Below are positions 6,249 through 41,084 of a stretch of 64,000 bases of DNA, piece after piece. The notes beneath the pieces are model-generated. The model saw only the letters and a list, made by a program, of their open reading frames with translations, was not told the DNA's origin and did not search any database. The first letter of the stretch is position 1. Each line of letters begins with the position of its first letter. The position numbers were made by a program, and so were the translations under genes. The DNA is from Candidatus Hydrothermarchaeota archaeon (lineage in GTDB: Archaea > CAYFZR01), in contig JBHIEG010000006.1 in NCBI GenBank assembly GCA_046760505.1, forward strand, positions 9,212 to 73,211. The letters run 5' to 3'.

Positions 6249-7028
6249 TCACCCAATGTAACGGAGATCTTCGTCGGTCTCTATTTCTTTGTGTGCGGCT
6301 TCGAGTGCCTTTTTTTGCATCTCGTATATTCGAGATAGTGTTTTTTCAGCCTCTCTTGCCCTGTTTTCGAGTTCTTCCAGACCTATCTCTATATTAAGGA
6401 TTTTGGTCAGTACCTCTAAAACTGCTTTAGCAGACTTTGCATCTACCAAGTAGCCAGATGTCTCGCCCATCAAGCATACGCCATTCATTCCTCTAAGTTT
6501 GCCAATGCCAAGAAGGAGGCCAGAAGCCCCTACTATACCGCCTCTTTCGTCCTCACTTTTGAAGTTGATACCGTATTTTTCCATCTCCGCTATCAAAGAG
6601 AGATCTGTTGCGGCGCCAAATACCCTTGGCTTTTTTACAATCCTCCCTGTACCATAGCCTCCTAGAGTGAATATTTGCTTTGTATTATATTTTTCAACTA
6701 GATCTAGAATCTTGGTTACGATATCATATTGGCCCTGAGGGGTAAGTCCTTGAGTATTTCCAACGACGAAGATAAGATCTGGATGGCTACCTCCTCCTTG
6801 GTAGTAGTAGAATTCATTGGACATCATTTCTATGGTGCCATCTTCCTTCACCAGAACTTGAGGCGGAAAATCTGGCGAAAAGAGTTCTGCAAACTTCTTT
6901 GCTTTGATTTCGTTTATCATGTGTTCTGCAGCTAGTTTTCCAACGTGTCCTATTCCGGGCAAACCCTCTATCAATATTGGATCTTTCAACTTTGGTTCGT
7001 AATATACCTTAATTATTGCCTCTTTCAT
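6249..7028 (-). CDS. Proteasome assembly chaperone (PAC2/PbaA-like) family protein
   Basis: [21 protein letters not shown]-terminal signature and acidic C-terminal tail. Confidence 0.65.
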
Positions 7029-7993: not shown

Positions 7994-8179
7994 TCACTCC
8001 AATATTTCAATGACCTTGGTTTTTACCTCTGCTTTTCCTCCCGTGGGTTCAGCCAATACCTTGTTGCAGATTATGCACCTTATCAGGGTGCTGGCGCAAC
8101 CGAATATTACCTGCTCATTACCACAGTCCATGCACTTTACCCTTAAGAACCTGCTCTTCGGTTTTGGTATGACCTCCAT
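7994..8179 (-). CDS. rps27e: Ribosomal protein S27e
   Basis: [33 protein letters not shown] zinc ribbon. ATG 8179 follows AAGGTG plus 6 nt. The track ORF is over-extended into rpl44e. Confidence 0.9.
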
Positions 8180-8189
8180 CTTTGACACC

Positions 8190-8468
8190 TTAGTCCACGA
8201 GTTCCAGTCTCTTTGTCCTGAACCCCTCCCTCGTATGGGCTTTTCCACATTCCTTGCACCTGTACCTCAAACTAACTTTTTTCGTTGGTTTTTCTCCAGA
8301 TGGCAAGGCTCTCGGAAATCCTCCATATCCGCTCATCACTCTTCTGAACTGCCTTTGGCCCCACTTTAATTCACTTGCCTTTCTCTTCTTTACCTGTTCA
8401 ATTTCATGAATTGTGTGTTTTTTACAGTAGGGACAGTGTGTACGTCTTGATTTCGGCATCTTAACCAT
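8190..8468 (-). CDS. rpl44e: Ribosomal protein L44e
   Basis: [19 protein letters not shown]...[11 protein letters not shown]. Confidence 0.9.
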
Positions 8469-39719: not shown

Positions 39720-39974
39720 TTGAGTAAGGAAGAATCAAAACCATACATCGTAGAAACTTTTTCTTTGGAGGAAAGCGGTATATGCGACGAGTGCGGTCAT
39801 AAGGGAGTGGTCCTTTTTTGTACTCCTTGTGACAGATATTTATGTGAGGTCTGCTACCACAACCATTCTGTGAGCGATGAAGAAATGCACTGGAAATGGA
39901 AGAACAATACTATATGCTGGTCATCTAATGATGAACCTATTGAAAAGTTAAAAGAGGAAGAGAAAGAGGAATAA
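39720..39974 (+). CDS. Small zinc-finger protein with B-box-like Cys/His spacing and acidic tail
   Basis: CDEC-x8-CTPC-x4-CEVC-x3-H-x7-H. TTG start 8 nt after the rpoK stop with no SD. Ends 1 nt from the tfb stop. Confidence 0.45.
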   Translation: MSKEESKPYIVETFSLEESGICDECGHKGVVLFCTPCDRYLCEVCYHNHSVSDEEMHWKWKNNTICWSSNDEPIEKLKEEEKEE

Positions 39975-39975
39975 C

Positions 39976-40878
39976 TTAGACCGCCACTTCTAAATCCAAT
40001 TTTTCAACGAGTTCCTTGTATCTGTTTCTTACAGTTACCTCTGATGTTCCAGCTACACCAGCAACTTCTTTCTGAGCTCTTCTCTCGCCTTGTAGAACGC
40101 TGGCAATGTATATTGCGGCTGCTGCAATTCCAGTTGGGTCTCTACCCGCAATCATTTCTTTTTCTATTGCCAGTTTTATTATGTCAATTGCCTTTGATTG
40201 AACTTCTCCAGAAAGACCTAATTCGCTGGAAAATCTGGCTACATATTCAATAGGACTTGTTGGCATGAGTTTTAATCCCAATTTCCTACCCAGTAGCCTA
40301 TAGATCTTACCGAGTCTCTTCTTATCTATTCTGGCTGCCTCAGCAATTTCACCCATGCTTCTCGGTACCTTATGCTGTCTGCATGCAGCGCAGAGAGCTG
40401 CTGCTACCACACTCTCTATGGATCTTCCTCTAATTAAATCACTTTTTACCGCTTTTCTGTAGGTTAGAGCAGCGGTTTCCTTTACATGTCTTGGAAGATT
40501 CAATTGCGATGAGATGGATTCCAGTTCTGAGAGGGCGAAAGCAAGATTTCTCTCCGTTGCATCGGATAATCTAACCCTCTGCTGCCACTTCCTCAACCTG
40601 TATAGTTTGGCTCTCTGACCTGGCGCGAGCTCGTTACCTCTTCCATCCTTTGTACTGAGGTCTATTGTAGTAGAGAGGCCTTTATCGTGCATCACATAGG
40701 TCATGGGGGCTCCTACTCTACTCTTAACAACCCATTGATGATGGTCGTGAGCCCTCCATTCTGGACCCGTATCAATCATATCGTGTTCAAGAACAAGCCC
40801 GCAGGATTTACAGATTAGTTCCCCTCTTTTCTCGTCCTTCGCTACCTTAGGACTCCCACACTCCGGGCATTTTTCCGT
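39976..40878 (-). CDS. tfb: Transcription initiation factor TFB (start unresolved: proposed ACG 40878, alternative ATG 40893 with in-frame TAG)
   Basis: Zn ribbon KCPECGS...[10 protein letters not shown]-reader, two cyclin repeats. The track ORF starts at Met 40779, after the ribbon. The ribbon is in frame and intact upstream. Confidence 0.9.
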
Positions 40879-40918
40879 TTTCTACACCTCCATCTTATTA
40901 TTAATGTGTTTGTACTTC

Positions 40919-40926
40919 TTTATAAA
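40919..40926 (-). promoter_or_regulatory. TATA box TTTATAAA of tfb
   Basis: 25 nt separate it from ATG 40893. A purine-rich BRE-like sequence lies upstream. Confidence 0.55.
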
Positions 40927-41084
40927 ACTTATGTTTCTCCTATACCCCAACGTGATTGTAATATATAAGTCTTTCGGTATAGATATAGATAGATAACCTG
41001 CAGAGAATTTTTGTATAACAAATTTTGCATGATGAATGAAATATAGGGGAATAAAAAACAAATGAAACAAGATTGATTTGATAA

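Follow-up and report, generated by a model that had tools for sequence, protein, structure and literature searches.

Where does translation begin in a conserved gene that has no recognizable start codon? The question is raised by tfb, the gene for the transcription factor TFB, on the minus strand of a 64-kb stretch of DNA (hereafter, the window) from a Candidatus Hydrothermarchaeota archaeon (assembly GCA_046760505.1, contig JBHIEG010000006.1). An earlier, sequence-only reading of the window had pointed out that this tfb has an intact zinc ribbon and no ATG, GTG or TTG at which to start, its first Met codon (40779) lying past the ribbon, and the window sequence bears this out. The answer that is probably correct is that tfb is initiated at an ACG codon under the direction of a Shine-Dalgarno (SD) sequence. 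Alignment shows that this ACG occupies the place that a normal ATG start has in a homologue, and the ACG, the SD and the spacer between them are shown to be conserved across two lineages.

On its minus strand, the window reads TTTATAAA (40926-40919), 25 nt, and then ATG GAG GTG TAG AAA ACG GAA AAA TGC CCG GAG TGT. Between the in-frame TAG and the first cysteine of the ribbon there is not one canonical ATG, GTG or TTG, the interval consisting only of AAA ACG GAA AAA, and the ribbon itself (CPEC...CKSC, with CKSCG in the translation) is intact and in frame with the ACG. Downstream of the TAG, the frame offers no canonical start until the ATG of Met34 (40779-40777), at a position beyond the zinc-binding motifs of the ribbon. 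The features of the locus are given below, where L090 is a contig of a sister lineage and P0001 is a close homologue with a normal start, both of which are introduced further on.

40919..40926, minus strand: TATA box TTTATAAA of the tfb promoter, identical in L090 together with the next 24 nt, and nearly identical at the P0001 locus
40882..40893, minus strand: possible mini open reading frame (ORF) of three codons, ATG GAG GTG TAG (MEV*), at the predicted 5′ end of the mRNA and in the window lineage only
40885..40891, minus strand: SD sequence GGAGGTG, complementary over 7 nt to the archaeal anti-SD, with 8 nt between the end of the GGAGG core and the ACG
40884-40882, minus strand: in-frame TAG, shutting the frame two codons ahead of the ACG
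40881-40879, minus strand: AAA codon between the TAG and the ACG
40876..40878, minus strand: ACG, the inferred tfb initiation codon, aligned with the ATG of P0001 and conserved in L090
40869-40867, minus strand: TGC for the first ribbon cysteine, following GAA AAA
39976..40878, minus strand: tfb coding sequence, 300 codons from the ACG, with its TAA stop at 39978-39976
40750..40872, minus strand: Zn-ribbon domain (PF08271), residues 3-43, with four cysteines and with its zinc-binding motifs upstream of the first canonical start
40777..40779, minus strand: ATG of Met34, the start used by gene callers, which is ATA (Ile) in L090 and P0001

When read from the ACG, the product shows both features of the TFB/TFIIB family, namely a four-Cys N-terminal ribbon and two C-terminal cyclin-like repeats. 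Pfam places Zn_Ribbon_TF (PF08271) at residues 3-43 with 64.7 bits (cut-off 29), over profile positions 2-42/43, and the TFIIB repeats (PF00382) in two stretches with 147.9 bits; the protein is also 60-65% identical to many archaeal TFBs.

One mundane explanation is that a single base was mis-sequenced or misassembled and that the true codon is ATG. A single transition would indeed restore ATG, and a related assembly (L081) happens to have a scaffold gap exactly over the tfb ribbon region. The 267-residue ORF beginning at Met-40779 was found as an exact match on three separately assembled Logan contigs (SRR29324585, SRR29324586 and SRR29324587), however, and all three read ATG GAG GTG TAG AAA ACG. 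Moreover, one of the three, L087, differs from the window at 5 positions in 310 nt, including a synonymous GAC>GAT in the ribbon, and therefore represents a separate haplotype. The four assemblies (the window and the other three), one of them a distinct haplotype, are thus concordant, the same ACG occurs in L090, an independent genome from another study, and 17 Asgard species carry this codon too. The one-base error that had been allowed for earlier is ruled out by the concordant assemblies and the second lineage, and whatever chance it retains is negligible.

A search of 5.8 billion proteins for the window TFB produced only two close relatives, P0001 and P0002, with the next tier at ~64% identity. 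P0002 (242 residues, 98% identical over the portion covered) comes from L081, the first contig of its lineage to be considered, in which a CC-NN scaffold gap stands in place of the ribbon region; L081 and L089 (98% identical) were uninformative as comparators, given that the gap takes in the whole of that region. The gap, in JABAOF010039183.1 (L081 2983-2986; L089 about 6291-6294), removes ~170 nt including the entire tfb ribbon and thereby accounts for the truncated 242-residue database protein. An ungapped contig of the same lineage, L090 (GCA_964347835.1), was reached by way of the neighbouring PolB gene, whose product is 83% identical to that of the window, the TFB being ~96% identical. 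L090 reads ...AATAACC GTGG GAGGTG TAG AAA ACG GAA ATT TGT CCC GAA TGT GGG, and it equals the window over 19 nt that comprise the SD, the TAG-bearing spacer, the ACG and the next codon. Synonymous sites of tfb are near saturation between the two lineages (pS 0.60, dS ~1.1), and divergence picks up again at codon 3, so that the identical block speaks for constraint rather than for a recent recombination tract. From the TAG to the cysteine, L090 has AAA ACG GAA ATT, with no canonical in-frame start until codon 59, and the ACG is the only near-cognate codon that this interval has in common in L090 and the window.

The second relative, P0001, is a protein of 300 residues, 85% identical to the window TFB, that begins MEVCPECG at a normal ATG. 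Its locus reads ...AATAAG TTT GGAGG AGTGGAAG ATG GAA GTT TGC, and MAFFT aligns its GGAGG with the GGAGG of the window and its ATG with the window ACG, the core-to-start distance being 8 nt in both and the Pfam ribbon lying at residues 3-43 in both. The SD is 7 nt long in the window lineage, as against 5 nt in P0001. The MEV shared by P0001 and the upstream frame of the window was considered as a possible 15-nt insertion and rejected as a chance match, since the alignment shows that the window MEV is the SD read in frame and that the P0001 ATG corresponds to the ACG. The sequence-only reading had proposed aligning the tfb 5′ regions of related genomes, and the alignment, with ACG in L090 and ATG at the aligned codon in P0001, joins the purifying selection on the ribbon (see below) in upholding its claim that the SD points at an in-frame ACG.

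Further evidence comes from the way in which the ribbon segment has diverged between the window and L090. Over codons 2-33 (the ribbon), there are 11.5 synonymous and 4.5 nonsynonymous changes (dN/dS 0.058, binomial p=6e-6), and over codons 2-58, which are all the codons before the first canonical start of L090, there are 20.5 and 6.5, respectively (dN/dS 0.045, binomial p=4e-10). The rest of the gene, codons 59-300, has 102 synonymous and 6 nonsynonymous changes (dN/dS 0.009), and the value for the whole gene is 0.015. Substitution patterns of this kind show that, for as long as the two lineages have been diverging, both have read the segment ahead of any canonical start in this frame, and purifying selection on the ribbon segment confines the start of translation to the interval from the TAG to the first cysteine.

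The same figures bear on the idea that the start has simply decayed, with this tfb being a dying or dispensable paralogue, or yielding a ribbon-less TFB from an internal Met, while a P0001-like tfb covers the function. P0001 (85% identical, with its ATG) and the window allele turn up together in the sequencing runs, the tetranucleotide signature of the P0001 contig correlates with that of the window at r=0.92 (the window's own chunks give 0.90-0.95, and other archaea at most 0.83), no third PolB lineage was found in the database searched, and gene callers annotate truncated products only. On these grounds, the ATG-initiated P0001 may be a paralogue from the genome of the window itself. This qualifies the earlier description of the gene as that of an essential transcription factor, as this tfb may not be the only copy. 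Decay is nevertheless improbable, because the ribbon and B-reader ahead of the internal Mets are under strong purifying selection at dS ~1.1, the whole-gene ratio is 0.015, Met34 is ATA in both L090 and P0001, and no P0001-like copy occurs in the available L090 data. Judged on this comparison, the weak codon is a long-standing selected state and not a recent lesion. The canonical TFBs of Hydrothermarchaeota that are 64% identical were also considered as a possible second copy and set aside, since they come from unrelated samples. The surroundings of P0001 (L097 1-7400 and 8547-9449) differ from those of the window tfb, with a histone gene next to it and an island with AbiEi/AbiEii, a nucleotidyltransferase and a phage-type integrase.

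A different solution, of which the sequence-only reading gave the leaderless AUG and the decoded UAG, is a leaderless or near-leaderless mRNA beginning at the AUG at 40893, in which the UAG at codon 4 is decoded by pyrrolysine, by a suppressor tRNA or by readthrough (MEV-X-KTEKC). The locus does resemble known cases of leaderless mRNAs and UAG recoding in that an AUG lies 25 nt past the TATA box, close to where transcription is predicted to begin, with a UAG after it in the same frame, and the TAG is kept in L090. The AUG is lineage-specific, being TGG in L090 and TTG in P0001, and in the window it is closed by the TAG after three codons; the TAG itself is TGG in P0001. Just upstream, L090 has three in-frame TAA codons (TAA TAA TAA), and its sole canonical in-frame codon before the TAG is the GTG of the SD. 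Furthermore, TAG ends 19 of the 66 long ORFs in the window and is therefore an ordinary stop here, as had been claimed for this DNA. The only tRNA in the window is a tRNA-Gln, with no tRNA-Pyl gene (pylT) in these 64 kb, which are the part of the genome covered. Decoding of the UAG is thus highly implausible, and the AUG alternative was abandoned.

SD-directed initiation at the ACG also agrees with the geometry of the window. The sequence GGAGGTG, earlier called a perfect complement of the anti-SD, is exactly that (its coordinates, formerly given as 40890-40885, are in fact 40891-40885), and it occurs only once across both strands of the window, at tfb. An SD of at least 5 nt precedes 29 window genes, and in 21 of them the GGAGG core-to-start spacing is 7 or 8 nt, the ACG of tfb being at 8 nt; the argument from a spacing of 7 +/- 1 nt, previously judged by eye, is noisy as evidence in its own right. 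Open stretches of at least 26 codons before the first canonical start are found in 6/66 long ORFs of the window, and only in tfb does the stretch contain a recognizable domain. The region of the tfb start is predicted to be unstructured, no special RNA fold being indicated around it (z-scores -0.7 to +1.0), and an Rfam scan of the window returned only a tRNA and nothing at this site. The spacing also equals that of a model mRNA from structural studies, Pyrococcus abyssi aEF1A (GGAGGUGAU-UUAA-AUG), in which the AUG lies 8 nt after the core (PMC6237735).

A mechanism can be proposed from these elements. Transcription of tfb from its own TATA promoter is predicted to start ~23-25 nt past the TATA box, near 40896-40893, if general archaeal promoter geometry applies, which would leave the mRNA with a short leader of ~17-20 nt. 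The long SD, GGAGGUG, would then position the 30S subunit, and initiator Met-tRNA would pair with the near-cognate ACG 8 nt downstream. This would yield a complete TFB of 300 residues that includes the ribbon and most likely carries an N-terminal Met. It is conceivable that the 7-nt SD partly compensates for the weak codon. Because aIF1 disfavours non-AUG complexes, little TFB would be expected to be made, in an amount that varies with how stringent initiation is, and the ACG probably keeps TFB synthesis low or dependent on start-codon stringency (aIF1/aIF2). There is precedent for such initiation. In Escherichia coli, ACG gives measurable initiation with an N-terminal Met (bioRxiv 10.1101/063800), and in Haloferax volcanii, ~30% of the alternative initiation sites mapped with harringtonine are near-cognate (PMC7261190).

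The same arrangement was met again far from Hydrothermarchaeota. As a control, the 82 other archaeal tfb loci listed were screened for a canonical start in the stretch that runs from the preceding in-frame stop to the ribbon, and 17 of them, each a separate GTDB species, were found to have none (L001, L002, L004, L007, L014-L023, L027, L035 and L036; for example, L019 2954-2970 and L002 2951-2967). Most of these are labelled Hermodarchaeota or Promethearchaeota, two Thor-/Odinarchaeota and two "uncultured archaeon". In all 17 species, which belong to the Hermodarchaeia (Asgard), the tfb ACG is invariant and lies 9 nt after GGAGG. Thirteen species (group A) read GGAGG-CGTAGGGAA-ACG ACG AAA GAA GTA AGT..., and the remaining four (group B) read GGAGG-CAGAAGTAA-ACG.... 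An in-frame TAA occupies codon -1 in 4 species and codon -6 in 3, and the first canonical in-frame codon lies past the first CxxC. Variable columns at the three codon positions number 7/0/13 over codons 2-21 compared with 11/6/8 upstream of the ACG, and pN/pS is 0.16 downstream compared with 1.39 upstream, which indicates that the ACG is where codon periodicity sets in. The 288-residue, GTG-initiated Asgard tfb ORFs had no exact match in public annotation.

In the Asgard loci, tfb follows the gene for Gar1 (PF04410), with which it overlaps by 16 nt. A gar1-tfb pair with the SD inside the 3′ end of gar1 occurs across archaea (L003-L080, L092 and L095), and in every other lineage of the set the tfb start codon of the pair is ATG, TTG or GTG. 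This synteny has been described before, with start codons unmentioned (bioRxiv 10.64898/2026.09.06.749720). The Asgard geometry, with its SD in the gar1 3′ end and its 16-nt overlap, matches that of a Hydrothermarchaeota locus (L092) that uses TTG. The tfb of the window differs in being unlinked to gar1 and in having its own TATA promoter, with PolB divergent upstream; the operon arrangement seen in the 17 Asgard loci is absent here, Gar1 is undetectable within the window, and a weak tblastn match to gar1 at 8061-8222 was discarded for want of Pfam support. When SD-supported starts were picked automatically, ~27/62 canonical tfb starts proved to be TTG or GTG instead of ATG, and weak start codons look common for tfb.

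The upstream gene shows a parallel departure. In the 17 loci, gar1 starts ~260-370 nt upstream of the tfb ACG, and its SD-spaced start (ccAGGAGtcgat followed by the codon) is ATG in L004, TTG in L001, L002 and L007, and CTG in 13/13 species of group A, so that both genes of the operon use non-canonical starts in that group. Among 150 complete ORFs from 16 Asgard loci, a conserved stretch before the first canonical start is found essentially only in tfb and gar1, the remaining genes having canonical starts. Two other features of these leaders were followed up and dismissed. A hairpin that could sequester the SD (GCCUCC...GGAGGC) has an invariant helix with no covariation, and its upstream arm encodes Pro-Pro-Gly of gar1; a Gar1-TFB fusion by -1 frameshifting was considered on account of a GGGAAAC heptamer, which is in the wrong frame in group A and missing from group B.

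There are other routes by which translation might begin between the TAG and the cysteine, namely reinitiation after MEV* in the window, or else the use of AAA, GAA or, in L090, ATT. The three-codon ORF of the window overlaps the SD, ends 3 nt before the ACG and might affect initiation there. In the Asgard loci, the gar1 stop follows the ACG at a distance of 13 nt, as is typical of termination-reinitiation, which may contribute at these loci. Such a route has a small chance of being correct, seeing that the AUG of the mini-ORF is absent from L090 and P0001, that AAA is two changes and GAA three changes away from AUG, that ATT occurs in L090 only, and that the ACG is both the sole shared near-cognate codon and the homologue of the P0001 ATG.

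The organisms in question are uncultivated, and several further observations weigh against SD-directed initiation at the ACG and should be set beside the evidence in its favour. First, ACG initiates poorly wherever it has been tried, so TFB output may be very low, and aIF1 destabilises complexes on non-AUG mRNA (PMC6237735). Second, of six 7-nt SD-like matches near the 5′ ends of window ORFs, four point at codons that are not starts; taken alone, an SD pointing at a codon is weak and noisy evidence, and it is the comparative evidence that carries the case. Third, the Asgard ACG is dual-coding with the C-terminus of Gar1 (in the gar1 frame, its A completes a Lys codon, AAA, and its CG opens an Arg codon, CGA). 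An ATG followed by A at this site would create a TGA in the gar1 frame, and the invariance of the ACG is thus partly confounded. Fourth, the clade of the window has yielded only two ACG lineages and one ATG homologue; no additional members were found among the 5.8 billion proteins, including by an N-terminal protein search, nor in JGI metagenomes, and a metagenome scan with a clade-specific wobble pattern matched only the already known contig of the L081 lineage.

The last of these observations is that C-to-U editing of the mRNA, turning the ACG into AUG, is compatible with the DNA-level data. Start-codon editing of ACG to AUG is established in chloroplasts, and as in plant organelles, it would explain a conserved genomic ACG at the start position (PMC9845219). 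It would be needed in two unrelated phyla, however, and no candidate machinery was seen in the window. To our knowledge, neither a machinery nor a precedent for C-to-U editing of mRNA exists in archaea, and this explanation is very unlikely.

Initiation at the ACG has its closest known counterparts in eukaryotes and in a bacterial gene for a core expression factor. According to the summary in PMC9845219 (citing Peabody 1987; Curran & Kolakofsky 1988), ACG initiation occurs in eukaryotes and viruses, for example in the Sendai virus C′ protein and in mammalian systems. The likeness lies in initiator Met-tRNA presumably accepting ACG despite a central mismatch and in the low or regulated output that would follow. 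The differences are that the eukaryotic codon is reached by scanning and judged by Kozak context whereas the tfb codon would be chosen by an SD duplex at a fixed spacing, and that eukaryotic ACG serves as the start of an alternative isoform whereas the tfb ACG would be the sole start of a core housekeeping gene. The second counterpart is bacterial infC, which encodes IF3 and starts at AUU; IF3 discriminates against AUU and in this way regulates its own synthesis. Like infC, tfb would be a central expression factor with a functional SD and a weak start kept by selection in different species, permitting tunable output. In infC, the feedback is direct, whereas TFB is a transcription factor for which any feedback would be indirect, and the codon is ACG. 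In sum, the tfb start would differ from the known cases in its codon, in its selection by an SD and in the gene concerned, and would otherwise work like near-cognate initiation and infC.

What might such a start be for? The conservation of the ACG on tfb in two distant phyla, and its restriction in the loci examined to tfb and, as another non-canonical codon, gar1, suggests deliberate control of TFB dosage, with the ACG acting as a throttle or regulator. If so, the supply of TFB would depend on the start-codon stringency of aIF1/aIF2. It is tempting to go further, and to see in the ACG of tfb (and the CUG of gar1 in Hermodarchaeia) a selected translational throttle that had independent origins in two or more phyla, Asgard among them, as an SD-anchored counterpart of eukaryotic near-cognate initiation and as the first native ACG starts described in Archaea; this wider proposal is tentative and somewhat less likely to be right than wrong. 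The literature searched yielded no archaeal tfb described as starting at ACG, and one apparent match for an archaeal ACG start proved to concern a viral tRNA-Thr. Archaea and eukaryotes have the codon-checking factors e/aIF1, e/aIF1A and e/aIF2 in common (PMC6412873, PMC5103072). The Asgard archaea are the closest archaeal relatives of eukaryotes, and with proofreading factors of the eukaryotic type present in archaea, the Asgard cases make a pre-eukaryotic origin of regulatory near-cognate initiation testable.

There is a practical consequence for annotation as well. The accepted start codons of archaea are AUG, GUG and UUG (review PMC7531240). The annotation of both tfb genes is wrong, the window product being called at 267 residues and that of the sister lineage at 242. 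ACG lies outside the start set of genetic code table 11, and gene callers consequently truncate these tfb genes, which lose the ribbon that recruits RNA polymerase.

Finally, two features in the surroundings of tfb deserve mention. The first lies further upstream of the gene:

40961..40978, minus strand: conserved upstream block ACCGAAAGACTTATATAT, in which ACCGAAAG is invariant and the remainder partly conserved in the window, L090 and the P0001 locus

This block is kept although the upstream neighbour genes of the three loci differ, and it might serve as a regulator site or as another TATA-like element of the tfb promoter region. The second is a small Cys-rich ORF of 84 residues (CDECGH...CTPCDRYLCEVCYHNH; window 39720-39974, plus strand) that is convergent to tfb. 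It has no Pfam match on record, and at its counterpart position in L090 an ORF of 88 residues is called.

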